Source: a virus
Taxonomy: Duplodnaviria; Heunggongvirae; Uroviricota; Caudoviricetes
Reading direction: 5' to 3' (one strand)
Length of the DNA: 64,000 bases
IMG/VR virus record: IMGVR_UViG_3300029571_000006
The notes beneath the pieces were generated by a model, which worked only from the letters and a program-made list of their open reading frames with translations, was not told the DNA's origin and did no database searches. Shown here piece by piece: positions 15,379-64,000 of the stretch (positions are counted from its first letter, which is position 1; each line of letters starts with the position of its first letter). A program made the translations under genes and the position numbers.

Positions 15379-15383
15379 ATACT

Positions 15384-15406: not shown

Positions 15407-15468
15407 ATATGTAATTGAAAGCCCACTCTGTAGCAGGCGATCAATATGGCTATTAGCCTAATATGAAC

Positions 15469-18856: not shown

Positions 18857-19238
18857 CTCCTCGCTTCTTTCTTAATTTGTGAAACGTGAAGTTGAGCTGA
18901 ACTGTACCATTTGTTTTTGGATATGCCTCAAAATTTGTTGCCAGCATTGCAACAGTTCTGAAAAGCTCACTATCATAGTAGTCGATTTTCTTTCCAACTA
19001 CACTGATATATCCCATATTCTTTGATGGTTTAAACAGCTCATATTTTACCTTTACGTTTCTTCCTTGTGTTATATTGCGTAAAGCCAGATAGCTATAAAG
19101 CATCTGACTAATACGTTCTTTGTCTACACATGAATCATTACGACACAGTTCATCCGCTGTATCCATAATCCATTGTCTATCAGACTGATTTAAAAAACTC
19201 ATATCAACCTGAAGTCCTATTGTATCCATGTAGCACAC
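18831..19238 (-). CDS. Hypothetical protein
   Basis: 135-codon ORF. Confidence 0.3.
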   Translation of the reverse strand: MCYMDTIGLQVDMSFLNQSDRQWIMDTADELCRNDSCVDKERISQMLYSYLALRNITQGRNVKVKYELFKPSKNMGYISVVGKKIDYYDSELFRTVAMLATNFEAYPKTNGTVQLNFTFHKLRKKRGDDCNGKSN

Positions 19239-22134: not shown

Positions 22135-22155
22135 AATGTTCCTCCTTTTGAATTT

Positions 22156-23170: not shown

Positions 23171-23569
23171 TTTAACATCTCCATTCTCAATCTTTTCTAT
23201 TAGTGTAAGTAATTCATTGTATATTTGGATCAATCCGCCTCTGTCATCAATATAAACATTTGCATATATTTTTCTACCAGAAAAAGCGACAGAAGAATCA
23301 CAATTAACCCCTTTGTACTTAATGTTATTGTCTTTGAGATATTGTTCAATCATTTCGTATTTGTCTTCGCCATTACCGGTAAATATAATCACCTCTGAAT
23401 ACTTCTCCCATCTATGCAAAAGACTGATAACATTTTCATACGTTCTTCCCTTTTTATGAAAGTCATAAATTGTATCATCAAAATCCACGCAGAAGATAAG
23501 CTTGCCGTATTTTTTAAATTCTTCTTCTAATCTATTGTATGAATTATTTGACTGAAGATAAAAATCCAT
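23162..23569 (-). CDS. HAD-superfamily phosphatase-like protein
   Basis: DxDxT motif (CVDFDDTIY). RBS GGAGGA before MDFYLQ. Confidence 0.4.
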   Translation of the reverse strand: MDFYLQSNNSYNRLEEEFKKYGKLIFCVDFDDTIYDFHKKGRTYENVISLLHRWEKYSEVIIFTGNGEDKYEMIEQYLKDNNIKYKGVNCDSSVAFSGRKIYANVYIDDRGGLIQIYNELLTLIEKIENGDVKHE

Positions 23570-23570
23570 A

Positions 23571-25031: not shown

Positions 25032-25033
25032 TT

Positions 25034-25858
25034 CTACACCTCCAAAACCGTTATCTTCTCATGCTCTCCAGCAAATAAACTGCCTGTTGTAAATAATCTC
25101 TCTACTGTATTATCTTCGAGCGACCTTATCAATGTACCTTTTTCTCTGTCGAGTATTGAGTTTTCTGTATGTGTTGCATACGCATAAATTGTCTTAGCTC
25201 CAATACGTTTTAATTCTTTTGCACTGTAATATAGTGATCCGCCGTATGCAATGATGTCATCAATCATAAGTACTGTCTGACCGCCAAGTCCCATACCATT
25301 TGTTCTTACATCCAAACCAAGGATTTTGCCCGTATCCCAGTCACGTTTCTTTTCTCCATAGCAATATGGCATTCCCTGCAATAATCCTGAATACCTTTTA
25401 GCCGCACCCTCGTCCGGGAAATATAAGATAATTGGATTTTCTCCTATTTGTTTCAAAACTTCCTTAATATATCTTTCCGGTGTATATACAAGCACATTAT
25501 TCAGCAGTGCAGCTCCTACATTACTGTGAACATCAAGAATTCTGACAACATCAAACCGTAACCAGTTAATTGCATCTGCAAATCCCCGAAGCGTGAACAC
25601 CTCTCTTTGATTATGAATACGATCCATTCTTGCATTTGGAAGATACAGTAGATTAAGATAAATTTCCTGTATACACGGCATATTTCTGAGATGTCTAGTC
25701 ACATAGATGAGTGTAGATAGCTCCTCTTCCATTTCAAATTTCCAAGTAATCTCATGCGTATTTCTCCACTCCATCTTCGGGAGATTTTCAAGAACAATTC
25801 TCTGTGTTCCATCTGGGAAATGCTCTACCTTTACTTCTGTCCCATCTAAAATAATCAT
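25034..25858 (-). CDS. Ribose-phosphate pyrophosphokinase family protein (Prs-like; could be an ADP-ribose pyrophosphokinase Adps-type variant)
   Basis: FPDGTQRIVLENLP, VLMIDDIIAYGGSL (PRPP-binding loop) and GAKTIYAYATH. Confidence 0.65.
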   Translation of the reverse strand: MIILDGTEVKVEHFPDGTQRIVLENLPKMEWRNTHEITWKFEMEEELSTLIYVTRHLRNMPCIQEIYLNLLYLPNARMDRIHNQREVFTLRGFADAINWLRFDVVRILDVHSNVGAALLNNVLVYTPERYIKEVLKQIGENPIILYFPDEGAAKRYSGLLQGMPYCYGEKKRDWDTGKILGLDVRTNGMGLGGQTVLMIDDIIAYGGSLYYSAKELKRIGAKTIYAYATHTENSILDREKGTLIRSLEDNTVERLFTTGSLFAGEHEKITVLEV

Positions 25859-29732: not shown

Positions 29733-29761
29733 AATAACTATCAGCCTTTCTTAAATATAAA

Positions 29762-30089
29762 TGGAGCTGAGGGGAGTCGAACCCCTGTCCAAAAATATTA
29801 CTCACTATGAATCTTTACGCTGTTTTGGAATCATGTACTGATTTCTATCCACCACTCTGTTCTTAACTGTCTCAACCAATACAGGTGTTCATTTACAGAG
29901 AACCGTATACAAATTATGCTTGTTTTTGAACCTCAGTATCTACCAGCAATATCTCAATACATTTTGGTGTAGCAACTTAGGCTACTGCTAACATCTGTCT
30001 GTTTGCGTTTGTGTTTAATAGTTGATGATTAAGTCATCACTCTAGCGAATTCATAACTTTCATACCCCTGTCGAAACCTTTACAGCCCC
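29762..30089 (-). ncRNA. ssrA: tmRNA (SsrA), phage-encoded
   Basis: 5' GGGGCTGTAAAGGTTTCGACAGGGG and 3' GGACAGGGGTTCGACTCCCCTCAGCTCCA match tmRNA tRNA-like ends. Acceptor GGGGCTG/CAGCTCC includes the G3-U identity pair. Tag-like reading frame ...GCAAACAGACAGATGTTAGCAGTAGCCTAA (…ANRQMLAVA*). Similar to the B. subtilis tmRNA ends. Confidence 0.75.
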
Positions 30090-40713: not shown

Positions 40714-42930
40714 CTATTCGTCTTTGAATTTCTTACCGGAGTCTGATTCGTAAAACATATCTCGCAATGTGCAGATATTTCTCGGAACACTATCTAAATC
40801 CTCTACATCATGAAGTGTTTTAACCCATGCGTAGAACTGATTTGCAAGAGGTGTTACCAATGCCGCTGTTCTTTTCGGGTCAATATATCCTTTCTTAATG
40901 GCTTCATGCGAAATTGATCTCATGAATTTCCAGAAATTGTAGTACGCCAGTTTCAGCTTAACCATGTATCCGTTTGAATCTTCAATAACGAATCCCTCGA
41001 TGCGTCTTCCGTCATACTTGTAATCTTCATCCATTACCATATTGTACCAATCAAAGAAGTCCTGCCATGTTTCAATCTCATATCCCAATTCTTTATGAGG
41101 AATGTTGAGAGATTCAGCAACAGTACACATCTCCTCAAAACTAAGCTTCTGGAATTTCATATCATTTGATACGATATCCAGCAGAAATACTCTGCTCTCC
41201 GGATACTTAATAATGTGAGGGTCTCTTTCCATGTCTACATTTTCAAATACAAATGATACGTCATGCTCTTTACAATAAGCATTGATCTTATCAAGAGTAT
41301 CGTCACCAAGCTGTGTATGAAGTGCTTCAGCAAACCATTCAGCATATGACCCTTCCGGATTTGACTTAGTAGTCACAAACAGTTTTCCTGTTTCTGGATT
41401 ATTGGATACGATTCCAAGATATCCATTCTCCTTGACGTATGCCCTCACAGGGAATGCCAACTTATCCTGCAGCTTGTCTAATTCTGTCTCTGGTCTTTCG
41501 TTGATGTTAAAGAACTTATCATAAGCTCTGGCAACAATTTTCTGTTTTGGAATATCGATGTATAATCCTCTTGCCTTTGTTGTCTGCTCGTCCCAGATTT
41601 TGTCATAAAACGCTGTTTTGGTGAAGTTAAATGATGAGATATCTCCATACTGCTTTTCCTTGATGTACTTATTTCTTCTAAGCTCAAGAATCCACTCTCC
41701 GACGGAATCCGCACCAGCAGACACCTCTTCCGGTTCTCTAAATACTGTATTCTTTACCTCTACCGTATTGAAAGTACCGTCGTTATCGAGGATAACAGCT
41801 CTCAGGCTTCCACCAAACTCAACTCTTCCTTCAAGATTGAAGGCATGATTGTTGACTTTTACCGGAAGTCCTTTTGTATTTCTATGACCATGAATCTGAT
41901 AACAATTTTCATCCATCTTATCCTCGAATGTTGCATCTACCTGCTCAGCATCGTTGTATCTTCCAACACCCTTAATCATCTGACTGGTAGATACCATTGT
42001 GAGATTATCTGGAATCATACTTAACCCAGCATGTGTGGCAAGGACTGTCTTACCTCTGAATTCGTAATAAGCGCACTGACCCATCCGTCTGTAAAGCTTC
42101 CTGATTGACTTCTTATCAATACCGGCTGCTTCGATTTCTGCTTTTGTATGGAATTCAAACTCTTTAGATGCCGTCACTTTATCATGCGCCCAGTCCCATA
42201 ACCACCGCTCATGATTACCCTCAAGAAGCAGCACATTCGGCTTATCATATGTTGAAAGCAAGAATTTCAAGACATCAGCGTTTTCAATTCCTCGATCTGT
42301 GTAATCACCACAGAAGATGTAGAATTCATCATCTTTAAAACCGCCATTCGCTTCAAAATATGTATTCAATGCTGTATTACATCCATGAATATCTCCAATA
42401 TGATGGATACGTTTGTACTGATCCAGATTGAATTTCTTCATAAACACAGCGTTTAACTCATCTGGCTGAATAACCTTAATGCCTGACGGAATTTTCTGTG
42501 TCTCGAACCTTGCATACATCTTATCGATTACTTCTTCCGGCACTCTTTTCAGTTCCTGTCGTCCTCGATTTCTTTCCTTTGTTACCTCGATTGGAACAGT
42601 CGTCATATCAACGCAGTAGATTCGGTATCTGTACTCATCGCACATCTTCTTATATCTATTCATTTCAGATGTTTTAGAGTTAGTAGCATCAATCACAGTA
42701 AACTCGCCATTCTTCATTCTTGTCTCCAAGATATTGAACAGTGTTTTCCACACAATATTATCATTTGCCTGACTGATTGCGTGTGTTCCGTCCGGCATCA
42801 TCTGCGGACTTGAGCACATCATTCTAATATTATCTGCTGATAATGCATACTGTTTTAATCCGTTCTGCTCAATCCATGTGGATTTCCCACATCCTGCGCT
42901 TCCTCTTAATAACAGTAAAACTCTCATGTT
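40714..42930 (-). CDS. Pnkp-like RNA repair enzyme: polynucleotide 5'-kinase + metallophosphoesterase (3'-phosphatase) + nucleotidyltransferase/ligase domain
   Basis: P-loop LLLRGSAGCGKST, phosphoesterase GDIHGC...GDYTDRG...GNHE, ligase motif I KENGYLGIV. RBS GAGAGGTG before MRVLLLL. Confidence 0.6.
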   Translation of the reverse strand, partial: NMRVLLLLRGSAGCGKSTWIEQNGLKQYALSADNIRMMCSSPQMMPDGTHAISQANDNIVWKTLFNILETRMKNGEFTVIDATNSKTSEMNRYKKMCDEYRYRIYCVDMTTVPIEVTKERNRGRQELKRVPEEVIDKMYARFETQKIPSGIKVIQPDELNAVFMKKFNLDQYKRIHHIGDIHGCNTALNTYFEANGGFKDDEFYIFCGDYTDRGIENADVLKFLLSTYDKPNVLLLEGNHERWLWDWAHDKVTASKEFEFHTKAEIEAAGIDKKSIRKLYRRMGQCAYYEFRGKTVLATHAGLSMIPDNLTMVSTSQMIKGVGRYNDAEQVDATFEDKMDENCYQIHGHRNTKGLPVKVNNHAFNLEGRVEFGGSLRAVILDNDGTFNTVEVKNTVFREPEEVSAGADSVGEWILELRRNKYIKEKQYGDISSFNFTKTAFYDKIWDEQTTKARGLYIDIPKQKIVARAYDKFFNINERPETELDKLQDKLAFPVRAYVKENGYLGIVSNNPETGKLFVTTKSNPEGSYAEWFAEALHTQLGDDTLDKINAYCKEHDVSFVFENVDMERDPHIIKYPESRVFLLDIVSNDMKFQKLSFEEMCTVAESLNIPHKELGYEIETWQDFFDWYNMVMDEDYKYDGRRIEGFVIEDSNGYMVKLKLAYYNFWKFMRSISHEAIKKGYIDPKRTAALVTPLANQFYAWVKTLHDVEDLDSVPRNICTLRDMFYESDSGKKFKDE

Positions 42931-43336
42931 TTCACCTCTCATATATTTCTTAGTTGGTTGCATAAGTAACTCCACTCCAGACCTCACTCATTGCCTTTAC
43001 GCATGACGATATTGCAACCACAATAATGCCTCAAGTGCATTACCGATAGTCTTTTCAGTATACTTATAGGAGCAGGGGTGTTAGTGTTTCCCGTCTCAGT
43101 CTACCAAGGTATTTACGAAGCCAGAAAAGGAATAATCGCTCCGTCCGTTGAGGCTACGCCTTACGCATCGCTGAAAAGCTCATCGTTTCGCTTCGATGGT
43201 GCAACTTCCACCTAACCTCTATTTCTTTTACGCCCAAATATATAAACAAATATATGCCAACCACAACATACTTGTTTATATATCCACCTTGGAACCCGAC
43301 CGCTACTCACAGCCGTGATATGTTATCTCAACCGGG

Positions 43337-43731: not shown

Positions 43732-43946
43732 TTCATAACACTTCCTTTCCTGTTTAAACTGTAATCTAAAGTACGGTAGCCCGTGTAATCACGCCCAGTA
43801 GATCTTTGATCTTCAGGTTCCTCCTCTTATGGAGGTATTGATTATCAGTGGGTTATGTATATCCTGAAATTATTTCTGGGTTTACGGCGTGCTCAGCATC
43901 TCGTGCTGCCGCGTCTTCCAGCTGCTTGGTGACGGTTATTTTCCTC

Positions 43947-44003
43947 ATCAAGTTGTCACTTCCGCCGACGGCAAGAAGCACTGCAAAGCAGTAATATCAT
44001 TAC
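43947..44003. repeat. Conserved structured element copy A (34-nt box ATCAAGTTGTCACTTCCGCCGACGGCAAGAAGCA + covarying hairpin + TAATATCATTAC)
   Basis: Identical or near-identical box at 51142, 51402 and 53277. Hairpin sequence differs but the stem is preserved. Confidence 0.6.
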
Positions 44004-44006
44004 GGT

Positions 44007-44306
44007 TTAAAACATAATATCTTCTTTCGTGACTTGATCTTTGGACTTCTTATTTGAGTATTCTACCCATGAAATCCATTTGTGATTTTCCGTGACATCT
44101 CCAGTCACATCGTATACTTTCCCTCCAATTCTTGTTCCGAAACAATTATTTTTTGGATCATACATGATTGCTGCGTTGTTCCGAATAAATCTTCTGAATA
44201 AAATAGAAGCAAACCAGTAGCTGTTTCGACCAGAAAATGATTCAATCACGCCATGATTTGCTCCTCCAGAGGTAATCCGATATATAAATTTCATTGCATC
44301 ATTCAT
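44007..44306 (-). CDS. Hypothetical protein
   Basis: 99-codon ORF. Confidence 0.4.
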   Translation of the reverse strand: MNDAMKFIYRITSGGANHGVIESFSGRNSYWFASILFRRFIRNNAAIMYDPKNNCFGTRIGGKVYDVTGDVTENHKWISWVEYSNKKSKDQVTKEDIMF

Positions 44307-49413: not shown

Positions 49414-49722
49414 CTAACTATTGATCTTAATTCCACTTAAGAAATCATCAAGCTCGGCTCCATCAATTTCATCTTCAGGAACAGGTTCTACCATATCGAT
49501 TGATATTGATATCGCTCCCATAGTATAGCCAAGCAATCTCTGTCCTTCAATGCCAGTAATCATGAATTCATCACCGCACATATTACGCATAAAGTCAGTA
49601 AAACTGTACTTACACGGAATATTTCCATCCTCATCAACACCAAACTCTGCTTCCATGTCCTCCCACGATCGGATTCTAACAACGTCTCCGACCTTTGGAT
49701 TGAAGTTACTCCTGTCCATCAT
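49414..49722 (-). CDS. Hypothetical protein
   Basis: 102-codon ORF. Confidence 0.35.
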   Translation of the reverse strand: MMDRSNFNPKVGDVVRIRSWEDMEAEFGVDEDGNIPCKYSFTDFMRNMCGDEFMITGIEGQRLLGYTMGAISISIDMVEPVPEDEIDGAELDDFLSGIKINS

Positions 49723-50269: not shown

Positions 50270-50466
50270 TACTTTTCCCTTTCTTTAGTGTGATGAAGAC
50301 AATTTCCACAAATATAAGCCTTATCAATACTAAATGTTTTATACTTATCAGATTCTTTGTTCATGCAAACACATGCTGTATGTATTCGCATGTCTTCTTC
50401 GGACAGAAAGTCTCTTTTATCCAAATAAATACATCTCATGCTTTTACTCCGGCAGGCACTTAACAA
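50269..50466 (-). CDS. Hypothetical small Cys-rich protein
   Basis: 65-codon ORF. Confidence 0.25.
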   Translation of the reverse strand: MLSACRSKSMRCIYLDKRDFLSEEDMRIHTACVCMNKESDKYKTFSIDKAYICGNCLHHTKEREK

Positions 50467-50902
50467 CTCTTTTTGTATGCCCTATCGTCTTCAACTTAGA
50501 CCGCGTGATCTTCTCAATCTTTGTGACTTTGACTTCTACGTCACCAAAAATCGTTCTGACTATTGCATGAGACCCAATTTTAAGATTCTCTGAGCCTTCT
50601 GTATCGTCTACCATCTTCCAGCGATATTCCTTGTCAACACCAGGATGCACTCCATAAACCAATGTGACCTGCCTTGTATTTGTCTGCTTAACGCATACAA
50701 CCTTGGCTTTATTTTCAATAAGGACAAGATATCCGATATATCCGTCTTTAAGTACCATATTTTCATCAACTACAATATCCCTGTCAAGACGATGGTTTGT
50801 CCGGTAGAACTCTCTGCAAGCCTCCATTTTGTCTTCGTTTGGTCTTGAATGGCTAAATCTATTTGGGACTTTTATCAAATTGATGCTAGTGTTAAAATGC
50901 AT
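50444..50902 (-). CDS. Hypothetical protein
   Basis: 152-codon ORF. Confidence 0.35.
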   Translation of the reverse strand: MHFNTSINLIKVPNRFSHSRPNEDKMEACREFYRTNHRLDRDIVVDENMVLKDGYIGYLVLIENKAKVVCVKQTNTRQVTLVYGVHPGVDKEYRWKMVDDTEGSENLKIGSHAIVRTIFGDVEVKVTKIEKITRSKLKTIGHTKRVVKCLPE

Positions 50903-51141
50903 ATTCTTCCTCCTTAAATTTGTTTAAATGTACAATCTAATATGTATAGATGAGCTTATCCAGGATCTAATTTATGTATGCCGGTGCTGCGATGATTTGG
51001 ATTTCAAGAGTCCTTGATTCTATGTTTCATTGAATTTCAATTAGTTATCCTGTTGACAGTTTGTATTTGTTATGTTATGAGGTTCCTGATGAGTTTGTAC
51101 TCAGCTCCTCCTCTGGCGCTCTCGGGTAGGTTCTCTGCCCT

Positions 51142-51200
51142 ATCAAGTTGTCACTTCCGCCGACGGCAAGAAGCATATCCAATGGATATAATTTCATTGT
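51142..51200. repeat. Conserved structured element copy B
   Basis: Box identical to copy A over 34 nt. Hairpin TATCCA-A-TGGATA, then TAATTTCATTGT. Confidence 0.6.
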
Positions 51201-51401
51201 ACATTTATGATTTGCTATGCAATCTAGTGCATGTTTACCTGTATATCGCTTCCTGAAAGTTCTTTCTGGAGCTAACTTTCTGGATTTGATTCTGGTATAA
51301 GTTCCTGATTATCAATATTGCTTTTTCTTGAGTCTTCAGTTCCTGGATGGTGATCCGGAAGGAGGCACCCGTCGTCTGCAGGATGGTATGTTTCTTTCCT
51401 G

Positions 51402-51460
51402 ATCGAGTTGTTACTTTCGCTGACAGCAAAAAGCACTGTAAAACAGTAATTTCATTGCAT
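51402..51460. repeat. Conserved structured element copy C (diverged, with compensatory changes)
   Basis: ATCGAGTTGTTACTTTCGCTGACAGCAAAAAGCA: the internal palindrome GCCG-A-CGGC becomes GCTG-A-CAGC. Hairpin CTGT-AAA-ACAG, then TAATTTCATTGCAT. Confidence 0.6.
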
Positions 51461-51477
51461 AGCTTATTATTTGTCAC

Positions 51478-51873
51478 TTAGTGGTTCTGTACGAATTTCC
51501 CATCTTCTGTAATCCACATTACTCTAATGATAATGTCTCCGTTTTGATCCATTTTCTCTAACATGACTACATCTTCTATATCCCAGTTTATCGGGTATGC
51601 TCCAGGATATTCGATTGCACACTCTATTGGAGTTGATGAATCGGTCTCTATCCAATCTCTGTCTAAATTGAACGATCCAGGAATGGTATCAACTTTCATG
51701 TGCTTGATTCCGTATTTATCCAGCATCGCACACACTTCTTTGATATATTCATTCTCATACAGCATCTCCTCAAGTTTTGGAACGGTTATATCGAACATGC
51801 ATTTTGCGATTTCATTATCTTTAACTCTATTACCAATCCACATTGACAAGATTTTCTTTCGTTCTTCCATCAT
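51478..51873 (-). CDS. Hypothetical protein immediately downstream of the RT
   Basis: 131-codon ORF. Confidence 0.4.
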   Translation of the reverse strand: MMEERKKILSMWIGNRVKDNEIAKCMFDITVPKLEEMLYENEYIKEVCAMLDKYGIKHMKVDTIPGSFNLDRDWIETDSSTPIECAIEYPGAYPINWDIEDVVMLEKMDQNGDIIIRVMWITEDGKFVQNH

Positions 51874-51917
51874 TTGCTACCTTTTAAAACCTTTCTATAC
51901 CTTTGAAGACCTACAGC

Positions 51918-53057
51918 CTAAGCTGTGAGGTCTTCTTTAATTGATTTCACGATATCCACACCAAATTTCTCGCTGAGATGTTTAACGATTCCGTCAATCT
52001 TTTCTCCCTCAACCATCCGGTAATAGTTTCTATACCCGTCCATCGTTTGAATATCACTTTTATCCCAGGCGATTCCATTCTTTCTATCCATAGCATACGA
52101 TGAAAGCATTGCCTGGAATTGTCTTTTCTTTTTGTGACCTATCGTGATTTCATTATCTTTGTTGAGCATCAATCCAAGATTCCAGTTCTGACCCGCTGAC
52201 GATCCATATCTCGTCTTCTCTTTCTTGATTGTAAACGGCGCTCCGAAATCATTCAGTATTGATACGATTACATTCTGGATTTCCATAAAGCTAAACCCAT
52301 ATTTAGATGAAATCTGGAAATCATCAGCATATCTTGTATATACAAACCTCTGGTGATTGTATTCTCTGAGTGTTCTTGCAACTTCAAAATCAACCGGAAT
52401 CATCATAATGTTTGTAATGGTTGGAGACAACGGAGTTCCCTGTGGAAGTCCCCCATCCAAGAATCCAAGCTCAAGAGCCTTTGCAAGTGCTTCTTTTCCT
52501 TTGTCATCTTTCATTACTTCCGAGAATGGGAACACCATCGAAAACATATGCAGCACCCATTCCATTGTTGTGCTTCCAAAGAAATTGGATAAGTCTAACT
52601 TCTCAAACCACTTACTTTCATTCGCCTGATGCCTTTTCAAAAGATCTAACGTACTTCTACCTTGTATATATGCGAATGCTGATGTGTGATAAAGCGCTTT
52701 GAAATCAACCTCAAATATATTTTTCAGAGTGCGTAATGCTTCTTTGAGTTCCGGTTCCGGAGCGTCAATCTTTCTAAGTCCGCCACTCTTTTTCGGAATA
52801 TGGAACTCATAGTACCATTCATGCCGTGGCTTCTCTCTTAAATATTCTGTTCTTTCGTTGAACCATTCGAGTTTTGCAATAAGCTTGTCAATATCAACAA
52901 GCTGAAGAAATCGATCACTAACTTCTTCAACCTCATACGTCCTTGTATTCGTTAAATTTGCATTTATTAACTGTGCGCCAGAACCAGATCCAAATAGGAA
53001 CTCTTCCAGAGTCATCTGGTGGTATGATGGTGGCTGTTTTACTGTTATGTAATACAT
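51918..53057 (-). CDS. Retron-type reverse transcriptase
   Basis: YYEFHIPKKSGGLRKIDAPEPELKEALRTL (retron RT motif 1/2 with LK), SAFAY...GRS, DLSNFF, GLPQGTPLSPTITNIMM, YTRYADDFQISS, KEKT...NLGLML. Aligns motif-by-motif with retron Ec86 RT. ATG after RBS AAAGGAG (the track start is a TTG). Confidence 0.7.
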   Translation of the reverse strand: MYYITVKQPPSYHQMTLEEFLFGSGSGAQLINANLTNTRTYEVEEVSDRFLQLVDIDKLIAKLEWFNERTEYLREKPRHEWYYEFHIPKKSGGLRKIDAPEPELKEALRTLKNIFEVDFKALYHTSAFAYIQGRSTLDLLKRHQANESKWFEKLDLSNFFGSTTMEWVLHMFSMVFPFSEVMKDDKGKEALAKALELGFLDGGLPQGTPLSPTITNIMMIPVDFEVARTLREYNHQRFVYTRYADDFQISSKYGFSFMEIQNVIVSILNDFGAPFTIKKEKTRYGSSAGQNWNLGLMLNKDNEITIGHKKKRQFQAMLSSYAMDRKNGIAWDKSDIQTMDGYRNYYRMVEGEKIDGIVKHLSEKFGVDIVKSIKEDLTA

Positions 53058-53276
53058 ATTTTCTCCTTTCAAGAACTGCAATCTAATGTATGTCTTAGTT
53101 GTATCCGTGCTGCATGATCCTGATCTTGATCATGTCTCTGCTTGGTATAATCCATTGATTATCATGTACTTATGACCTATCTGTTCCGGGATTCATCCTC
53201 TTCGGAACCTTTGCTGGAATTTCATGAAACTCTCGCATCCTCCGTTGCCTTCTATCCCGGCGGGGTTGCATTCCCT

Positions 53277-53337
53277 ATCAAGTTGCTACTTCCGCCAACG
53301 GCTGAAAGCTATCTCAAAGAGATAAATATCATTGCAT
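53277..53337. repeat. Conserved structured element copy D, inside the 300-bp ORF-free leader of the RT gene
   Basis: ATCAAGTTGCTACTTCCGCCAACGGCTGAAAGC + hairpin TATCTC-AAA-GAGATA + AATATCATTGCAT. Confidence 0.6.
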
Positions 53338-53343
53338 GTTCTT

Positions 53344-53370
53344 TATAAAAACCGCCACGCAACGTGGCGG
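53344..53370 (-). terminator. Rho-independent terminator ending the E1/JAB operon, upstream of the RT leader
   Basis: Minus-strand stem CCGCCACG-TTG-CGTGGCGG followed by TTTTT. Confidence 0.55.
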
Positions 53371-53384
53371 TTCATTCACTTCTA

Positions 53385-53582
53385 CTACACATTCTTGCTA
53401 ATCTTATCGACATATGCTTGGAAGCTACGAATCAGTTCTGTATCTTCTATATAAAATGGATCAGAGTTATACTCGTCGTGAAAGAAGTTATACATTAGCT
53501 GACCGAATCTCATGTCTGGTACTCTTTTCCACGCAGTCGATAAAATTTCGCAGAATAGGTCGATTCTTTGCTTATCCCTCAT
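53385..53582 (-). CDS. Hypothetical small protein (last gene of the operon)
   Basis: 65-codon ORF, 3-bp spacing to the upstream gene. Confidence 0.35.
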   Translation of the reverse strand: MRDKQRIDLFCEILSTAWKRVPDMRFGQLMYNFFHDEYNSDPFYIEDTELIRSFQAYVDKISKNV

Positions 53583-53584
53583 GG

Positions 53585-54256
53585 CTAAAACGCCAACAGG
53601 TCAAATTTGAACCCGTCCATAATAATCATTTTCTTGATTCCATCGCCTTTTACGAAATTGATGTAGTTGTTCACACCGAGAGCTGAAATCAATCTTACTG
53701 TTGTCGCTACACCAAGTGTAACACCACAAGCGGATATTGGTGTCTCATCCTTAGCTTCATCATGTGAGAACTGCATCGAGTTCAATAAATCTTCCTTCAT
53801 TTTGGAATCAGACCAGTCAGCTGCATAATGCTGCGCACTTTCAAGCAATGTTCGGAAATCAAATACCGCTTTTACATATGGACTGTCAAAATGTTTTTCA
53901 ACAATCTCTCTTCTCAGTTCAATGCTGTCTACACACAGGAAGATATATCCCGACATCAGCTTTCCCTGCCATCCTTCCGGTTTGATTTCAATCTGATCAG
54001 AAATTTCTGGATTGATATCTGTCAGAATATCTTTTAATGCTTCGACCTTGAGTTTACCAACATCGTTCTGGTCGAACATCTGATTTACAATGTTATGTGG
54101 TTCAACTTTATCGAAATCCCATAAAGTCATCTTTGTTACACCACATCTTGCAAGGTTCTCTGCTACTGTAGAACCGACAGATCCACATCCTACAATGTGG
54201 ATTCTTGCCTGATCTTTTTCTGGCTGGAAAAATTCATAACTCTTACTTAAATCCAT
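53585..54256 (-). CDS. E1-like (ThiF/MoeB/HesA-family) adenylyltransferase domain protein
   Basis: Rossmann motif IVGCGSVGSTVAENLARCGV followed by LWDFDKVEPHNIVNQ (E1 nucleotide-binding signature). RBS GTAGGAGGA. Confidence 0.6.
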   Translation of the reverse strand: MDLSKSYEFFQPEKDQARIHIVGCGSVGSTVAENLARCGVTKMTLWDFDKVEPHNIVNQMFDQNDVGKLKVEALKDILTDINPEISDQIEIKPEGWQGKLMSGYIFLCVDSIELRREIVEKHFDSPYVKAVFDFRTLLESAQHYAADWSDSKMKEDLLNSMQFSHDEAKDETPISACGVTLGVATTVRLISALGVNNYINFVKGDGIKKMIIMDGFKFDLLAF

Positions 54257-54265
54257 AATATCCTC

Positions 54266-54745
54266 CTACACGTTGTAAATTCCTCTGCTTCCGTTTTGTG
54301 GTACAGTAAATAACTCTGCGATAGACATTTCTTCATTTCCCACTTCATATCTATCGTCTGGATCTTCTTCTACGAATGGCTCCGGCTCTTCTTCGTCATC
54401 GTAGTCTTCTTCATCTTCATCGCAATCGTCAAATACTTCCTCATAATCAGCCCACTCAAGCACCTCATCCTTTAAATCATCAAAATCACTTTCGTCTGCT
54501 TCTGAAAAATCTCCATCATCATCTCTAATATAATAAGATGCTCCTGTCGGAATATCTTCCAAGGATTCTAAAAGATCACTCCAATCACTTGCATCTCTCG
54601 CCATATCGACAAGCCGCTCGTTAAAATAGTCATCTAATTCATCCTGTGAATATACTTCGCTACAAACCGAACACTCATAGTCGTAGCAGAAGCTTCTCAA
54701 TTCACTCCATGTTGTCACATTCTGAATGAATTCATCTCTGGTCAT
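54266..54745 (-). CDS. Highly acidic hypothetical protein with N-terminal CxxC pair
   Basis: 159 codons, D/E-rich (DDCDEDEEDYDDEEEPEP). Confidence 0.4.
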   Translation of the reverse strand: MTRDEFIQNVTTWSELRSFCYDYECSVCSEVYSQDELDDYFNERLVDMARDASDWSDLLESLEDIPTGASYYIRDDDGDFSEADESDFDDLKDEVLEWADYEEVFDDCDEDEEDYDDEEEPEPFVEEDPDDRYEVGNEEMSIAELFTVPQNGSRGIYNV

Positions 54746-54761
54746 TTATCTCATCTCCTTA

Positions 54762-55715
54762 TTATTCAAATCCGTATTTCTGTCTCCAATACTCATCCTG
54801 GAATTCACTGTATCCACCGTATACATCATCGTCGTCATCTAAATAGCCAGGGTATCCGTAATCTGACATGCTCATCTGTTTACAAGAAGATTTATTTCCT
54901 TTCTTACGTTTCCCCTTGCGCTTCTTGCCGCTTTTATTTCCCTGCACAAGGGGACTGGTTTTTCCCAGGCTAGAGTTCTCCTTTTTCGGTTCTTCCTTTT
55001 TCTGCGCTGAATATCCGCCGTAGCTTGGATATCCAGGATAAGAGTTTCCATAAGTTCTAGCCCCAGTGCCGTAATTGTATGTTTTTGTAACAACCAGTTC
55101 TTTTGCTTCCTCAAGGAATCCTGTCAAATCTCCGACTTCTTTGACGGCGACTGTAACATCTGCCGTTTCAAAAAGAATGTTCTCTCTCAGATCATATAAT
55201 TTTACTGTTTTCTCCCCTCGCTTGTTGTATATCATAAAGATATAAAACATATCGCTGTCCAGCTGGCTAAGAATTCCATCATAAAGATTCAAATCCACAC
55301 TTGATGGACTTGTTGACATATTTACATGCGAATGTCCCTGCATTCTAATGTTGTTGAATACGTCATCTTCCTGCTTCATCAACCACATCTCATACTCATT
55401 CTGATCTGTTGTTACGGTTGAACCTGTAACTTCCTGCGGATAAACCAATATATCCGAAATCAGATATGTATCTTTTTCTTCGCATCGTTCTGCAACACCA
55501 TGCCATGCAACTTCTTTATCAAATTCTCTAATAAGAGTCTGCATTTTCTGCCATGCCATTTCAGTAAAAAGGACTGTTGCTTTTCTATCAACAGTCCCTA
55601 ATGTCTTTGTGAAATTTATTTTTCCATCAGAAAACTTTCCAGTACGAAGAGTTTCATAAAATTCCTGTGTGTACTGGTTAAGGATTTCCTGTGGTAATGT
55701 TATCATTTTACTCAT
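54762..55715 (-). CDS. JAB/MPN+ (JAMM) metalloprotease-domain protein with Gly/Tyr/Lys-rich low-complexity C-terminus
   Basis: Upstream Glu (AWHGVAERCEE) plus GHSHVNMSTSPSSVD = E...HxH-x7-S-x2-D JAMM motif. RBS AAGGAG before MSKMITL. Confidence 0.6.
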   Translation of the reverse strand: MSKMITLPQEILNQYTQEFYETLRTGKFSDGKINFTKTLGTVDRKATVLFTEMAWQKMQTLIREFDKEVAWHGVAERCEEKDTYLISDILVYPQEVTGSTVTTDQNEYEMWLMKQEDDVFNNIRMQGHSHVNMSTSPSSVDLNLYDGILSQLDSDMFYIFMIYNKRGEKTVKLYDLRENILFETADVTVAVKEVGDLTGFLEEAKELVVTKTYNYGTGARTYGNSYPGYPSYGGYSAQKKEEPKKENSSLGKTSPLVQGNKSGKKRKGKRKKGNKSSCKQMSMSDYGYPGYLDDDDDVYGGYSEFQDEYWRQKYGFE

Positions 55716-55727
55716 ATTTCGCACTCC

Positions 55728-57317
55728 TTAGAATAAATCGTCTTCTTCAAGGAAATCATCCTCTGTTTCAGTTTCTTCTGTATCTACTGCTTCTGCACCT
55801 GTCTCTTCATCTGTTACAGTATCTGCGTTAGCAGTTGTCTCAGTTGATTCGGTCTGCTCAGATTCCTTAGCCTGCTCTGCCGCTTCCTGTTCTTTCATCC
55901 ACTTGATAGCCCCTCGCATATCAACGATGCTGCCATCTGGAAGCTCGATACATTTGTTATGTCTGTATCCATTTCTTCCACACATGCGTTCCATAAATAC
56001 TTCCATAACTGTACTGTCAGCAAAATTCAAGCTCTTACATGATGAGATACACTGCTCGATGGCTCCGATCGCATCATTATCAGCCAGTCTCTCATTCATC
56101 GTTCTTTCGTAATTTCCAAGACAGCTGTATCTGTCAATATGCGGGTTTGGAATATATGTTTCGTAGCTCTCGTTGTAATTATAATTCCGTAAGCCCTCCA
56201 CTCTTTCTCCAAGCCTGATACGGTATGCGCAGCAGAATCTTAATTTCAATACCTGGTCGATGAAGATCGCATACATCAGCTTCTCGACATCATCCTTTTC
56301 CATAGAATCTCCGATGTATCTATAGATATAGCTTCTTCTGTTATCTATAACTGTCTTTGCCATATCCTCATCAAAGTACATCAGATAATCTTTAACAACA
56401 AAAGTCATCTCTGATCCTCTGACACACTCAAGATCCAGTTTCTGATTGCACAGGAAGTATTCCATGATTTCGGAATCCTCTCCTTCCATCTGAGCAATCT
56501 TTGTCTTGAGACCTAGCAGTCTAATCTCAGCATCTCTCTTCCTGTTCAATGCGGTTGAGATACTATTGTTATATCCTCTAATCTGGTCTACGTAATCGCT
56601 GATATTTTCCTGTACAATCCTAACCTGTTGTTCTTCGTATGCGGTTTCAAACCCTTTCAACTGCTGTCTGATAAACATTCCTCTGAAATCATATCCAGAA
56701 GCAATCTTTGAAATTGCATTCATATACCGCTCTGGAGTTGTTTCTCTCAGAGACTGGATCAATTCCATTTCATCTTCCGTTACTCCAGCCTCCGGGTTAA
56801 AATACCAAGGTAAGAATGCAAATATTGAACACTGTAAATAGTGCATTCTACGAATATTGAGATTATCTACAAATATGACAACCTTTTTATTTGTAGGATT
56901 TACATAACACAAAGCATAAAAAGTTTTCTTGAAAAACTCTGTTACTTTGACAATTCGTTCATAACGAGAATTGTTTGTTGTGAACGCTTTTTCAATCAAT
57001 CTCAGACATGCAAGATTTCCCTGTGCATTTCCAGACAGATTATGAATGACGATAGACCCATCTTCATATTGTCTTGAATTATACATAGCGTCAAGAACAG
57101 CTCCATCCGGATTCCTTTCTACAGTTTCTTTATCGAATGATGTACCTCTAAAATACAAGGACACCGATTCCCCGTCTGAAATTCTTGGACTTACTAATGC
57201 TCTTAATGTTGAGATAAATGTAACATCATGGTTGAAGTTTTCTCCTCTGATATTCGCAAAGTATGTATTTGCTGTCTGTGTGACCAATGGTGTGGTTGTA
57301 ATAGTTGGTCTAAACAT
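55728..57317 (-). CDS. Hypothetical large protein (529 aa), first gene of the E1/JAB operon
   Basis: No family I can name. Acidic C-terminal tail. Contains NPHIDRYSCLGN, reminiscent of but not matching the UBC HPN...C motif. Confidence 0.4.
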   Translation of the reverse strand: MFRPTITTTPLVTQTANTYFANIRGENFNHDVTFISTLRALVSPRISDGESVSLYFRGTSFDKETVERNPDGAVLDAMYNSRQYEDGSIVIHNLSGNAQGNLACLRLIEKAFTTNNSRYERIVKVTEFFKKTFYALCYVNPTNKKVVIFVDNLNIRRMHYLQCSIFAFLPWYFNPEAGVTEDEMELIQSLRETTPERYMNAISKIASGYDFRGMFIRQQLKGFETAYEEQQVRIVQENISDYVDQIRGYNNSISTALNRKRDAEIRLLGLKTKIAQMEGEDSEIMEYFLCNQKLDLECVRGSEMTFVVKDYLMYFDEDMAKTVIDNRRSYIYRYIGDSMEKDDVEKLMYAIFIDQVLKLRFCCAYRIRLGERVEGLRNYNYNESYETYIPNPHIDRYSCLGNYERTMNERLADNDAIGAIEQCISSCKSLNFADSTVMEVFMERMCGRNGYRHNKCIELPDGSIVDMRGAIKWMKEQEAAEQAKESEQTESTETTANADTVTDEETGAEAVDTEETETEDDFLEEDDLF

Positions 57318-57344
57318 TTTGATTCCTCCTTTTCTAATGTTTAA

Positions 57345-57418
57345 TGGATCGTATCCGACTCGAACGGATGACCGGTCGGTTATGAGCCGACTGCTCTAAC
57401 CCACTGAGCTAACGATCC
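57345..57418 (-). tRNA. tRNA-Met (anticodon CAU; could also be initiator or lysidine-Ile type)
   Basis: GGATCGT-TA-GCTC-AGTGGGTTA-GAGC-A-GTCGG-CTCATAA-CCGAC-CGGTC-ATCCG-TTCGAGT-CGGAT-ACGATCC-A. Clean cloverleaf. Confidence 0.75.
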
Positions 57419-57514
57419 GTGTCGTGGATTTTCAGCATATTTGTACCGGCAATCCACAAGCCGACTGATTCTTACATCTTGGACAGCATCCTCATATCTC
57501 ATTTCTCTTTATGA

Positions 57515-57543
57515 GATAAAGGGAAACCGGGAGTTGAACCCGG
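57515..57543 (-). terminator. Rho-independent terminator after the RNase H gene
   Basis: Minus-strand stem CCGGG-TTCAACT-CCCGG followed by TTTCCCTTT. Confidence 0.45.
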
Positions 57544-57552
57544 TATCAGCGT

Positions 57553-58203
57553 TTAACGCACCTCATTCCCTATTTTGTTTTCCTTGCAGAAATTACTAAC
57601 CGCATACTTTGCAAGCTTGTCTACCATTTCGTTGTACTTTTCACCTGTATGAGCAGCTACTTTTTGAAACGATATTGCGATCTCATCCTGCCATTCCTTC
57701 ATTGACGTTGAGTATTTTAATGTCAAATCGTTATTTGCTTTCCATGCTCCGATAGCCCACATTTCAATACCGCTATAGTCATAGCAAATATTTACAGATT
57801 TACATCCGCTTCTGATTGCATATCTTACAGCACTCATAGCTGCGAGCATTTCCCCCGCAACATTCCTCAGCAACACACATTCCGGATTGTTTCCTGCCCC
57901 ATAATACTGTTCAATCGAACCGTCCTTTTTAATTACAACACAGCCGTATCCGTAAACATTTGTTGCCACATCAAAGCTTCCATCTACATAAATGGTAATG
58001 TCCGCCTCCTTGCTCTTATCGCTCTCTATGACAGGTTCGACATTTCCACTCAAGTAAATCTCAGCCTCTTTGCGGGTTGAGAATCCTTTGTATAAAGCGC
58101 CACTGAAGCCTTCAACCTGCGCCTTGCACTCATCCCATGTTTTATATATCCCTGGATTCTTTCCTTGTTTCACCGCATAAAAGTTGTTTTTCTTCTTTGC
58201 CAT
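57553..58203 (-). CDS. rnhA: Ribonuclease H1 with N-terminal hybrid-binding domain
   Basis: N-terminal FYAVKQGKNPGIYKTWDECKAQVEGFSGALYKGFSTRKEAEIYL (HBD). RNase H core ITIYVDGS...GYGCVV...E...D. Confidence 0.7.
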   Translation of the reverse strand: MAKKKNNFYAVKQGKNPGIYKTWDECKAQVEGFSGALYKGFSTRKEAEIYLSGNVEPVIESDKSKEADITIYVDGSFDVATNVYGYGCVVIKKDGSIEQYYGAGNNPECVLLRNVAGEMLAAMSAVRYAIRSGCKSVNICYDYSGIEMWAIGAWKANNDLTLKYSTSMKEWQDEIAISFQKVAAHTGEKYNEMVDKLAKYAVSNFCKENKIGNEVR

Positions 58204-58248
58204 CGTGACGCCTCCGTTATTTACTTTTAAAACCGGGGAGAATTAACT

Positions 58249-58305
58249 CCCCGGAAGCCGAGCATGAGTAAGCATACCGACGATAGTTCGTCGGCTTGAG
58301 TTATT
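58249..58305. repeat. 57-bp duplicated element, copy 1 (hairpin-containing; starts inside the stop codon of gene 58305..58532)
   Basis: cccggaagccgagcatgagtaagcataccgacgatagttcgtcggcttgagttattt, identical at 59088-59144. Contains the CCGACGA/TCGTCGG stem. An extra hairpin + T-tract (58225-58254) follows on the minus strand. Confidence 0.6.
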
Positions 58306-58532
58306 TACGCATTGTCAGCTTTTACTACATTCAGCAGGAAGCATTTGTCTTTGATTCCCATCTCCTCGAATGATTTGTCCATATCACCAGGCTGCAGTGT
58401 AGAACCATCCAGATGCATTGTTCCTCTTGTGTAGTCAATGTCGTTTTCCTCAAGAACTGATCTCAGTGTTACTGCCTCATCTACGATTACGCTATTTCTT
58501 TTTACGTTGTTTCCTACTGTAACTTTAATCAT
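58305..58532 (-). CDS. Small protein with possible beta-grasp/ubiquitin-like fold
   Basis: MIKVTVGNNVKRNSVIVDEAVTLRSVLEEN...HLDGSTLQPGDMDKSFEEMGIKDKCFLLNVV follows the ubiquitin-like hydrophobic pattern but has no C-terminal Gly-Gly. Confidence 0.3.
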   Translation of the reverse strand: MIKVTVGNNVKRNSVIVDEAVTLRSVLEENDIDYTRGTMHLDGSTLQPGDMDKSFEEMGIKDKCFLLNVVKADNA

Positions 58533-58627
58533 GGTTAAATCTCCTTTTCTTCTTATATAATATGTATTTGTTCCATATTCAGTTTTAAAAAGGCTACCGC
58601 TTAATTGCGGTAGCCAAAGTTGCTGGA

Positions 58628-59017
58628 TTAGGCAACTGTGATGCCATCCATGATAGCTGTTCTTTCCTTGTCAATAGAATCGATAACAGCCGGGATAGTT
58701 TTTTCCAGTTTTCCAAGGTTTGTCAGAGCTGCGCCCAGTTCATCAGCGATGAATCCTTTAATGTCATCTCCGTCATAGTTTGTTGTCATTGTGATGGTAG
58801 CCAGCTTCTCATCATCACGGGTTGCCTCGCCGAAGCTTGCTCCGTATGTATTGATCTTTCCAGCTCCTGTGCCAATTCTGAAGATTTCCTCTTTACCATC
58901 TTCGCCACCTTTAAGAACCAGTGCTTCCGGACGATACTTCTCAATCTTCTTGATGTCATCAAGTTTTACCTCAGATACTACTACGATTGCCTGTCCCATT
59001 GTTTTTACTTTTGCCAT
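58628..59017 (-). CDS. Hypothetical protein with strong RBS (likely abundant)
   Basis: RBS AAAAAAGGAGATAAG. 129 codons. Confidence 0.4.
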   Translation of the reverse strand: MAKVKTMGQAIVVVSEVKLDDIKKIEKYRPEALVLKGGEDGKEEIFRIGTGAGKINTYGASFGEATRDDEKLATITMTTNYDGDDIKGFIADELGAALTNLGKLEKTIPAVIDSIDKERTAIMDGITVA

Positions 59018-59087: not shown

Positions 59088-59144
59088 CCCGGAAGCCGAG
59101 CATGAGTAAGCATACCGACGATAGTTCGTCGGCTTGAGTTATTT
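59088..59144. repeat. 57-bp duplicated element, copy 2 (overlaps the stop codon of gene 59139..59753)
   Basis: Identical to 58249-58305. Confidence 0.6.
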
Positions 59145-62986: not shown

Positions 62987-64000
62987 AATGATTCTCCTCT
63001 CTGGATGCTCTTTTTAGTTTCAATGGGATAAGCCCATAAGAGAACGCCCGAAACCATGTGATATACACAACCTCGGACGCTCAATATAGGTTTATCAGAA
63101 CCACCGACATATCCGGCATCGTATGGACTTCTGCTGATACGCATTTGTCTGGAACTTTTCGCCAATGCCAGTGGTTCCGTTCAATATTCAGTTTTATTTC
63201 GCTATACTCTGTCTGTATCAAATTTCCTGCGATAGTCCGACATTTAATTCCTTGGAACATAGTCGATGTACCCTCGGGTACTGATACCATCACGATTGGA
63301 AATCCTCAATAGATTTTCAAGCTATCCCTCATGTTGACGCACTCAGGATAATGCGGCATATGTTTCACATCTAACTCTGCCTAACTCTGGGGATTTTCAC
63401 TATCTCGATACCATAAGCCTAACTCTCATGCACCAGCGACGCATCTGATAGCAGATGTACTCCCTCAAATCGGTCAAAGGAATCCACGATGACCGCAGAG
63501 TTTTGCTGATATTCTAAAGCCGTCAGTAGGTCAGCTCTGCCGAAACTCTTTGTATAGCGTCCTTTTGCCGGACTTCCCATATTGAACGCTTCAACTGATA
63601 TAGTTCACTTATTTCCTATCACGCAGGTAGCCCTCACGATACCTCATAAGAGATCCGATATATGCACTTATTACCTGCGAGTAGGTAGACCTCACAGTTG
63701 TATGGACATAAGCCCATAAAGAAAAGCCCCTCAATAGAGAGACTCTTCGTTAAGAACTTATTAGCAAGGATTTTCGTATCAATTAACCAACGGATTTACC
63801 TTTATAGAGCGCCCATGCTCATCCGTTCCGTATCTTGCATTATATGGCGGTTTGTATACTATGTCAGATTATATTTATATACCGCGCATCTGACATAGGC
63901 GAACTCTCTGGATTCTCAGCTTTTTCGCTCTGTCTTTTCGTGTTCCCACACTTACAACCGTAACCCACGGGGAAACCCTGTTGAGTGGTTGCCTGTTGTG

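Follow-up and report, generated by a model that had tools for sequence, protein, structure and literature searches.

Retrons are anti-phage systems of bacteria, in which one reverse transcriptase (RT) is combined with one non-coding RNA (ncRNA) and a toxic effector. In this study, we describe an RT gene and four copies of a structured RNA (units A to D) in a 64,000-nucleotide stretch of DNA from a Caudoviricetes virus (IMG/VR record IMGVR_UViG_3300029571_000006); this whole stretch is called the window below. We consider it fairly probable that these components, which belong to a large gut phage (~115 kb), form a retron-like retroelement with a single RT for four cognate ncRNAs. By analogy with known retrons, the locus would be a natural multi-template retron variant, and it is predicted to produce msDNA (multicopy single-stranded DNA).

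The closest described systems are Ec86 and St85 (type II-A) and the type I retrons Ec78 and Ec83. The best RT profiles and structures are found among these systems, and in them, as in the phage, an ncRNA is located directly upstream of the RT gene. As in the Ec86-type retrons, the 5′ part of the phage ncRNA possesses two hairpins, and its a2 arm ends a few nucleotides before the RT start codon. However, the phage system is encoded on a large phage and not in a bacterial defence island or prophage cargo, and it possesses four ncRNAs instead of one. Moreover, it has neither a nucleoside deoxyribosyltransferase (NDT), ATPase or HNH effector nor a long msd hairpin. The units of the phage family are 250-283 nt in length, whereas the Ec86 ncRNA is 170 nt.

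Three further groups of systems should be compared with this locus. An effector is associated with about 75% of retrons (PMC8632793). According to the sections of Mestre et al. 2020 (PMC7736814) that deal with them, stand-alone (msr-msd)-RT cassettes ("orphan retrons") exist in bacteria, and these sections leave open whether their effectors are supplied in trans or their function is a different one. The phage locus resembles the orphan retrons, as they are described in those sections: here too, a retron RT and an ncRNA are present and a recognizable effector gene is not. In contrast, the orphan retrons described there are bacterial and possess one contiguous ncRNA gene, whereas the phage system is viral and possesses several ncRNAs and a ThiF/JAMM neighbourhood. 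In multitrons, which are engineered retron arrays, one RT serves several ncRNAs in tandem or in trans, and each ncRNA yields a different DNA (10.1101/2023.07.17.549397). Phage units C and B likewise form a tandem pair; however, multitrons are synthetic. In type VI retrons, the template RNA and a downstream coding sequence are present on one transcript, and the complementary DNA (cDNA) controls translation (10.1101/2025.10.22.683967). Phage units D, B and A similarly end shortly before a downstream ribosome-binding site (RBS) and start codon. However, the RT clade is different (the phage RT matches types II-A and I best), a helix-turn-helix/small-toxin pair is missing, and the genes downstream of the phage units are not conserved between relatives. 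Retron-type RTs are also annotated in cultured phages, namely Staphylococcus jumbo phages, Pseudomonas Pf phages and Klebsiella phage 4LV2017. These RTs share 25-31% identity with the RT described here, and at the level of annotation no description of an ncRNA was found for them. In our literature search, we found neither a natural retron with several ncRNAs nor a functional study of a phage-borne retron.

The reverse transcriptase and its leader RNA

A preliminary description of the window, made from the sequence alone, had listed a series of RT motifs shared with the Ec86 RT. These motifs are present and align with the Ec86 RT (YEFHIPKKSGGLRKIDAPEPELKEAL, LPQGTPLSP, YTRYADD and KEKTRY...NLGLML). 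The absence of a maturase or endonuclease domain, which the same description had claimed, was also borne out, because RVT_1 is the sole Pfam match; the Pfam scan detected no RNase H or effector domain either. An in-frame TTG codon (53081) is present ahead of the ATG start codon.

The preliminary description had named a profile hidden Markov model (HMM) comparison as a check of the RT class. This comparison favoured the retron clade over group II introns, defence-associated RTs (DRTs) and diversity-generating retroelements (DGRs). Among the 65 PADLOC families matched, the top model was RT_II-A (8.8e-47), followed by further retron RT models. In NCBIfam, retron_St85_RT gave the best match (4.6e-50, 170 bits), whereas the scores of the non-retron models were lower (group II RT/maturase, 76 bits; Drt2, 35 bits; Drt3a, 21 bits). 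No DGR model was present among the six NCBIfam families matched. The nine best sequence matches with solved structures were all retron RTs, and the Ec83 retron RT was matched over its full length (5.5e-22). Identity with the Ec86 RT is 25%. Judged by profile comparison, the RT is a member of the retron clade. The predicted structure of the RT is of low confidence (predicted local distance difference test score, pLDDT, 61); Foldseek ranks retron RTs first for this model, which lends weak support.

Alignment of the RT family showed that region X carries LLKRH in place of the retron signature NAxxH and that region Y carries NLG in place of VTG. Of these residues, the region X H and the region Y G do not vary within the family, and both align with Ec86. 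In the part of PMC7736814 that treats the retron signatures, these two residues (H of NAxxH and G of VTG) are the most conserved ones. In addition, an N-terminal extension of ~75 amino acids (aa) is conserved in the RT family and is not present in the Ec86 RT.

The region between the upstream operon and the RT gene had been guessed to be an msr/msd-like template. The present analysis supports this guess: unit D possesses a1/a2 repeats and a candidate branching G, and their geometry is the same as in Ec86. From 5′ to 3′, unit D consists of a1, the G, two hairpins, a tail, ~150 nt of variable sequence, the ACATACATTAG element and a2. The RT start codon follows 13 nt after a2, and the RBS is located between them. 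The folding energy of the leader is better than that of shuffled versions (z = -4.9), and the minimum-energy fold closes on a1/a2. As a positive control, we used Ec86 from the E. coli C chromosome, which reads TGCGCACCCTTA-G-CGAG ... CTGAC-G-TAAGGGTGCGCA, then 6 nt, then the RT ATG. In Ec86 and in the phage units alike, a1 is followed by a G, a second G precedes a2, and the RT comes next.

Several details of the leader had to be revised. Three hairpins had been named in it; ATAATC-AATG-GATTAT is kept in orthologues, but the other two are not. The structures that are conserved, namely the a1/a2 closing helix and the two 5′ hairpins, had not been listed. Furthermore, the leader had been stated to contain no open reading frame (ORF) over 22 codons, which is incorrect: sense ORFs of 28 and 33 aa and an antisense ORF of 58 aa exist. 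None of these ORFs is conserved, and no frame is consistently open among relatives. In contrast, the dedicated terminator that had been reported for the upstream operon is real. It was read in the sequence and folded, and relatives possess equivalent hairpins with covarying stems and different sequences; a consensus scan did not list the hairpin. The terminator ends 2 nt ahead of the a1 arm of unit D.

Four RNA units with constant ends and variable centres

The leader had been described as containing copy D of a conserved element family, and extra template-like elements had been supposed to exist elsewhere. Both ideas were correct: a repeat scan gave four copies on the same strand, and units A, B and C each possess complementary a1 and a2 arms. 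The minimum-energy folds of these three units, like that of unit D, close on their own a1/a2. A covariance model of the 5′ module gave exactly four matches in the window, which correspond to units A-D, and a broader second covariance model, run on the window with filters off, gave no further site at E <= 1. All units share a 5′ module and a 3′ module. In the former, a1 is directly followed by an invariant G, after which come the two hairpins and a single-stranded tail that is conserved; the latter is a pyrimidine-A repeat that ends in AG directly before a2. Units C and B are arranged in tandem, with C first and 7 nt between them, and unit B is directly followed by the RBS that belongs to the 152-aa gene. 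Unit A is located 7 kb downstream of the RT gene, and its a1 arm overlaps the stop codon of the preceding gene.

The a1/a2 helix is maintained by compensatory changes. In an ungapped alignment of 19 distinct units, 81% of the a1/a2 positions are paired, and 11 of the 13 pairs show compensatory changes. It should be mentioned that this alignment was built by hand and that the bulged stems of class D and of one contig (L027) were placed by eye. The number of double-change cells was 61, as compared with 25 in shuffles, and none of 500 shuffles reached the observed value. When the register was slid as a control, only 27-44% of the positions were paired. The two junction Gs (one after a1 and one before a2) are invariant in position, and in position only, in all 19 distinct units. 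For the two 5′ hairpins, 90% of the positions are paired, and the double-change cells number 72, as compared with 25.5 in shuffles.

Related loci possess the same arrangement. Twelve IMG/VR loci with RT identities of 66-100% carry two to four units each, and the only two-unit loci among them (L009 and L010) are truncated downstream. In these twelve loci, one unit is placed directly before the RT gene and one or two after it, and all untruncated loci except L011 possess another unit 6-9 kb downstream. An ENA contig (L027; RT identity 69%) carries three units, and three contigs binned into metagenome-assembled genomes (RT identities 56-65%) carry two each. Labels of metagenome-assembled genomes point to a possible host among the Oscillospiraceae or Lachnospiraceae. 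In a fecal phage record (L013), the RT identity is 41%; the same 273-nt layout, with clear a1/a2, is present before the RT gene. Its a1/a2 and hairpin sequences are entirely different, and the covariance match is weak (E 0.5). No second unit was found in the 18 kb of this record, in which the repeats represent a paralogous small-protein gene family. In every relative examined, the 41% relative included, a unit directly precedes the RT gene. In IMG/VR, the exact tail motif was found in only seven contigs; all of them bear the RT, belong to the same phage group and possess 2-3 copies each. RT homologues are abundant in gut metagenomes: more than 5,000 proteins were found at E <= 1e-20, many of them on ~115-kb contigs.

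Comparison of orthologous units revealed conservation of ~75 nt at the 5′ end and of ~25 nt at the 3′ end, while the centre (~150 nt) is unalignable. The sole alignable central element is a palindromic motif, (A)TTGAWWWTCAA(T), which is able to form a 5-bp mini-hairpin. Its distance to a2 is fixed at 71-77 nt in classes A, C and D and at 82-91 nt in class B. A length that is kept while the sequence is not is consistent with a template in which the ends are important but the content is not. As compared with the genome strand, the centres are rich in C and poor in T, and they hold only short local hairpins in addition to the mini-hairpin. Comparison of the centres with the rest of the window gave chance-level matches only (best E 0.03-0.5), and no consistently open frame was found in them on either strand.

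The variability of the centres can be seen in a pair of close relatives, L004 and L005. Their RT genes are 99% identical at the nucleotide level, the unit ends are 91-100% identical and the unit centres are 70-97% identical. In the units at 11190-11740 and 18604-18870 of this pair, the centres are 70-87% identical. Their unit A contains a sharply bounded divergent patch of ~115 nt with no adenine bias. Because the genomes are mosaic overall, recombination may suffice to explain the variability of the centres in this pair. We also considered faster-than-neutral evolution of the centres; the signal is suggestive for units B and C and is inseparable from recombination mosaicism, so we did not retain this explanation.

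Neighbouring genes and phage context

The coordinates of the RT gene, the units and the neighbouring genes are listed in Table 1.

Table 1. Features of the RT locus and its surroundings (positions in the window)
Feature	Position	Strand	Details
Retron-clade RT (by profile comparison)	51918-53057	minus	379 aa, ATG start at 53057, YADD active site
ncRNA unit D, RT leader	53071-53343	minus	273 nt; covariance-model match E 1e-20
Unit D a1	53331-53343	minus	AAGAACATGCAAT, 13 nt
Unit D candidate branching G	53330	minus	directly after a1
Unit D hairpin 1	53311-53323	minus	
Unit D hairpin 2	53288-53309	minus	
Unit D conserved single-stranded tail	53273-53287	minus	AGCAACTTGATAGGG; family form RACAACTTGATnnGG
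Unit D internal palindromic motif	53155-53164	minus	TGATAATCAA
Unit D conserved 3′ element	53083-53093	minus	ACATACATTAG
Unit D a2	53071-53082	minus	ATTGCAGTTCTT
ncRNA unit C	51214-51463	minus	250 nt; a1 GCTATGCAAT 51454-51463; G 51453; a2 ATTGCATAGC 51214-51223
ncRNA unit B	50926-51206	minus	281 nt; a1 AAATGTACAAT 51196-51206; G 51195; a2 ATTGTACATTT 50926-50936
ncRNA unit A	43753-44011	minus	259 nt; a1 TTTAAACCGTAAT 43999-44011; G 43998; a2 ATTACAGTTTAAA 43753-43765
Intrinsic terminator of upstream operon	53346-53370	minus	CCGCCACG-TTG-CGTGGCGG, then TTTTT
131-aa ORF between RT and unit C	51478-51873	minus	no family match (Pfam, PADLOC, NCBIfam)
152-aa protein directly after unit B	50444-50902	minus	ParB/sulfiredoxin-like N-terminal fold, beta-rich C-terminal domain
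65-aa protein	53385-53582	minus	
ThiF/E1-like protein	53585-54256	minus	Pfam ThiF 1.9e-24
Very acidic 159-aa protein	54266-54745	minus	
JAMM/MPN protein	54762-55724	minus	motif HSHVNMSTSPSSVD read directly (HxHx7Sx2D)
529-aa protein, upstream neighbour of RT	55728-57317	minus	
RNase H1-like gene	57553-58203	minus	216 aa; PHROG RNase H 9.5e-23

The 131-aa ORF next to the RT gene had been put forward as a possible effector. However, this ORF is absent in L004 and L005, in which unit C begins ~50 nt past the RT stop codon. Because it is missing in these close relatives, the ORF is not a core component. The 152-aa protein was modelled with a pLDDT of 87.7, and Foldseek matched the model to the ParB-N domain of pNOB8 (E 8e-5); some of its homologues carry PF19157. 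Its identity is 62-68% in close relatives and 27% in L012, and a homologue was not detected in L027, L011, L033, L032 or L013. The 152-aa protein, which had also been put forward as a possible effector, can be regarded as a candidate partner. An effector of the type II-A style (NDT) was also considered: an NDT-like gene is present 7 kb from the RT gene in L027, but the window has no homologue of it, and this candidate was rejected.

On the other side of the RT gene, the 529-aa, JAMM/MPN, acidic and ThiF/E1-like proteins accompany the RT in all relatives, down to 41% RT identity. In L032, the RT gene and a unit are located between the JAMM and ThiF genes; therefore, the linkage survives rearrangement. 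The persistent linkage of this series to the RT is suggestive of a functional tie. The conserved block to which these genes belong (53385-59017, minus strand) also holds a 129-aa protein, a 75-aa protein, the RNase H1-like gene and a transfer RNA (tRNA) gene, tRNA-Met. By eye, the 75-aa protein has the look of a beta-grasp/ThiS-type fold. The neighbourhood recalls the ParB-related, ThiF-related cassette (PRTRC) in composition only; as an actual assignment, PRTRC was rejected because the PRTRC_ThiF score is 30 bits against a cut-off of 145 bits. The other proteins of the neighbourhood gave no NCBIfam match even at E <= 5.

The RNase H1-like protein shares 61% identity with the product of a Cauli_VI+RNase_H gene of L027, and in that contig the RNase H1 homologue is encoded directly after the RT gene and a unit. 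In the part of PMC8989520 that concerns this step, RNase H1 is required for retron termination. By analogy, the phage RNase H1-like protein is a possible helper for cDNA maturation.

The phage origin of the window, which the preliminary description had assumed, was confirmed by PHROG matches and by ~115-kb IMG/VR contigs. The window corresponds to a replication and auxiliary region, which codes for DNA polymerase, primase, a DnaB-like helicase, an exonuclease, DNA ligase and PhoH, together with a nicotinamide adenine dinucleotide (NAD)-salvage set, a Thg1-like enzyme, RNA ligase/kinase/phosphatase, a transfer-messenger RNA (tmRNA) and tRNAs. A likely counter-defence and repair cluster is located at 21295-25858 and 40714-42987. 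Its genes encode NAMPT, ribose-phosphate pyrophosphokinase, NAD synthetase, a Thg1-like tRNA-His guanylyltransferase and a 757-aa fusion of kinase, phosphatase and RNA ligase.

Other features of the window are as follows. The tmRNA (29759-30089, minus strand; Rfam, 91 bits) has an unusual tag peptide, ANRQMLAVA. The tRNA genes include tRNA-Gln (15306-15378) and the above-mentioned tRNA-Met (57345-57418), and a full-length RAGATH-16 RNA motif (63385-63457, minus strand) scores 88.9 bits, over the gathering score. A perfect 57-nt direct repeat (58250-58306 and 59088-59144; 838 nt apart) contains an 8-bp GC-rich hairpin, and the conserved genes for the 129-aa and 75-aa proteins are located between its two copies. 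An AT-rich motif of 25 nt, TGTAAATTATTTTATTAGCATGATA, occurs as direct copies at 4819-4843, 11109-11133 and 15383-15407 and as two inverted copies near 16933-16962. The direct copies are found just upstream of the starts of minus-strand genes or tRNAs, and the motif may serve the phage as a promoter or regulatory box. A protein family (~100 aa) is represented by a single copy in the window (49414-49722) and is expanded to at least six tandem paralogues in relatives (L012, 11165-17914; L013, 9450-15300). Finally, the N-terminal half of a 318-aa protein (15469-16425, minus strand) matches a PHROG integrase family (2.8e-15); the phage may be temperate or may bear a recombinase.

Proposed mechanism and alternative explanations

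By analogy with retrons, the RT would recognize and bind the shared hairpin module of the units, would be primed from the 2′-OH of the G at the a1/a2 junction and would copy the RNA 5′ of a2. Copying would probably end at the palindromic mini-hairpin or close to it, 71-91 nt upstream of a2. The expected product of each unit is a branched RNA-DNA of ~70-90 nt, or of up to ~190 nt if read-through occurs, and the RNase H1 of the phage or of the host may trim the template. Because the template segments are completely different from unit to unit and from one related phage to another, the products would be a small set of distinct single-stranded DNAs (ssDNAs).

Several observations weigh against the idea that one retron-type RT serves four templates. 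The RT scores under the curated cut-off of every NCBIfam retron family (for St85, 170 bits against 235 bits); therefore, it is a divergent relative and not a member of the named St85 family. The VTG and NAxxH signatures are kept only partly, being reduced to G and H. The unit centres fold no better than shuffles (mean z = -0.4 and -0.2), and thus the canonical long msd hairpin is absent. No known retron effector is encoded nearby, and the flanking small ORFs match no PADLOC effector model. Scanning of the whole window at the Rfam gathering thresholds gave no match at the units, and at E <= 10 only chance-level small nucleolar RNA matches were obtained in 50800-53500. A consensus scan revealed no evident sigma-70-like promoter at the units, and the upstream terminator abuts the a1 arm of unit D. 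Finally, units A-C are each located upstream of another gene or unit and could be leaders with a different role.

This last point can be developed into a separate explanation, in which reverse transcription is limited to unit D, and units A-C, as paralogous RNAs with the same RT-binding module, have another action. They might titrate or recruit the RT, or they might control downstream genes as structured 5′ leaders, as in type VI retrons. Unit D alone holds the canonical position adjoining the RT gene, units A and B end 21-23 nt before the downstream start codon, just upstream of the RBS, and type VI retrons set an example, in that the retron template and an effector mRNA share a transcript (10.1101/2025.10.22.683967). 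However, units A-C have retained more than the hairpins, namely all features of importance for priming: each unit has its own a1/a2, the two junction Gs, the pyrimidine-A tract on the 3′ side and the internal motif, whose distance is fixed. Moreover, relatives differ in the downstream gene, which can be the 152-aa gene, that for RNase H or a 71-aa gene, or can be missing, and unit C precedes another unit instead of a gene. We therefore regard this explanation as unlikely. Somewhat less unlikely, though still improbable, is that the RT and the ncRNAs are the nucleic-acid arm of a larger phage system, which would include the ThiF, JAMM, 529-aa and acidic proteins and perhaps the ParB-N-like protein too. 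It would then be a new retron "type" with a ubiquitin-like conjugation partner module. This possibility concerns the boundary of the system and is compatible with one RT serving four ncRNAs. The order 529-aa protein, JAMM, (acidic), ThiF, unit, RT holds in relatives down to an RT identity of 41%, and in L032, where the order is shuffled (529-aa protein, JAMM, unit, RT, ThiF, unit, acidic), the linkage persists. ThiF (95%) and the RT (86-90%) are far more conserved than their neighbours (50-70%), and the ParB-N fold after unit B, together with ThiF, recalls the ParB-related/ThiF-related cassettes. Nevertheless, all loci come from one collinear phage lineage, so that shared ancestry can explain the synteny. 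In addition, no HMM of PRTRC or another cassette passes, no RT is annotated within 5 kb of a distant ThiF-like gene of Xanthomonas jumbo phages, and our literature search turned up no retron type with such partners.

Two further explanations dissociate the units or the RT from retrons. The units might function as RNA or DNA signals independently of the RT, for example as promoter-leader cassettes, as sites of RNase III processing or as palindromes bound by a protein, and the unit adjoining the RT gene would then be coincidental. All units lie between genes, the internal motif is palindromic as DNA, the a1/a2 helix would suit processing, and a -10-like AT-rich stretch is present before several a1 arms. 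In contrast, only four sites exist in 64 kb even with filters off, the tail motif is confined in IMG/VR to RT-bearing contigs of this phage group, and a unit is found directly before the RT in every relative, including the 41% one. The junction geometry is that of Ec86, and no promoter consensus matches at the units. This explanation is thus very unlikely. We give almost no weight to the explanation that the RT functionally belongs to another RT system, namely a DGR, which acts by mutagenic retrohoming, a DRT2-like system, in which a new gene is encoded by rolling-circle cDNA, a group II intron or an abortive infection/unknown group (Abi/UG) RT. The ncRNA upstream of the RT, with its ~270 nt, resembles that of DRT2 in size, and unit centres are only 70-87% identical between relatives whose RT genes are 99% identical at the nucleotide level. 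However, this hypervariability is explicable by the overall mosaicism of the genomes, and the score of the retron model (170 bits) exceeds those of group II (76), Drt2 (35) and Drt3a (21), with no DGR model among the six families matched. Each of the named systems was also considered separately. A DGR was rejected because none of the unit centres recurs in the window as a possible variable repeat and the substitutions are of all kinds with no A bias. A group II intron was rejected because group_II_RT_mat scores 76 bits against a 300-bit cut-off, RVT_1 is the only Pfam match and no Rfam intron was found. A DRT2/Neo-like system was rejected because Drt2 scores 35 bits against a 390-bit cut-off and every frame contains stops; open stretches in the units are no longer than in shuffles (median p about 0.35).

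We return to the preferred explanation, a retron-like retroelement with four cognate ncRNAs. Because no toxin-type effector is found and the region is rich in counter-defence and repair genes, counter-defence or inter-phage competition is favoured over classical abortive infection. The role of the products as decoy or sponge DNAs, or in inter-phage competition, is a guess of low confidence. In a wider proposal, which we make tentatively and regard as doubtful, an effector-less retron of widespread gut phages uses two to four templates to direct a set of ssDNAs against host immunity, possibly together with ThiF/JAMM. Such ssDNAs would be, for example, decoys or sponges for ssDNA-based or retron-based defences. 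As a further possibility, the cDNAs might recombine back into their own loci, which would explain the local variability of the templates.

If one RT does serve these four ncRNAs, the locus would be the first natural retron with several templates, and it would be viral instead of belonging to a bacterial defence island. It would be a natural counterpart of the multitrons, in which an RT has been naturally selected to serve ncRNAs both in cis and in trans. The shared 5′ module and junction, set against the free central segment, would provide a simple model of RT recognition, and the separation of constant and variable parts could aid multiplexed genome editing. A common human-gut phage lineage would thus keep a multi-template retron-like RT with no recognizable toxin, which would suggest that retrons also have a function other than abortive infection and that this function serves the virus in the arms race.

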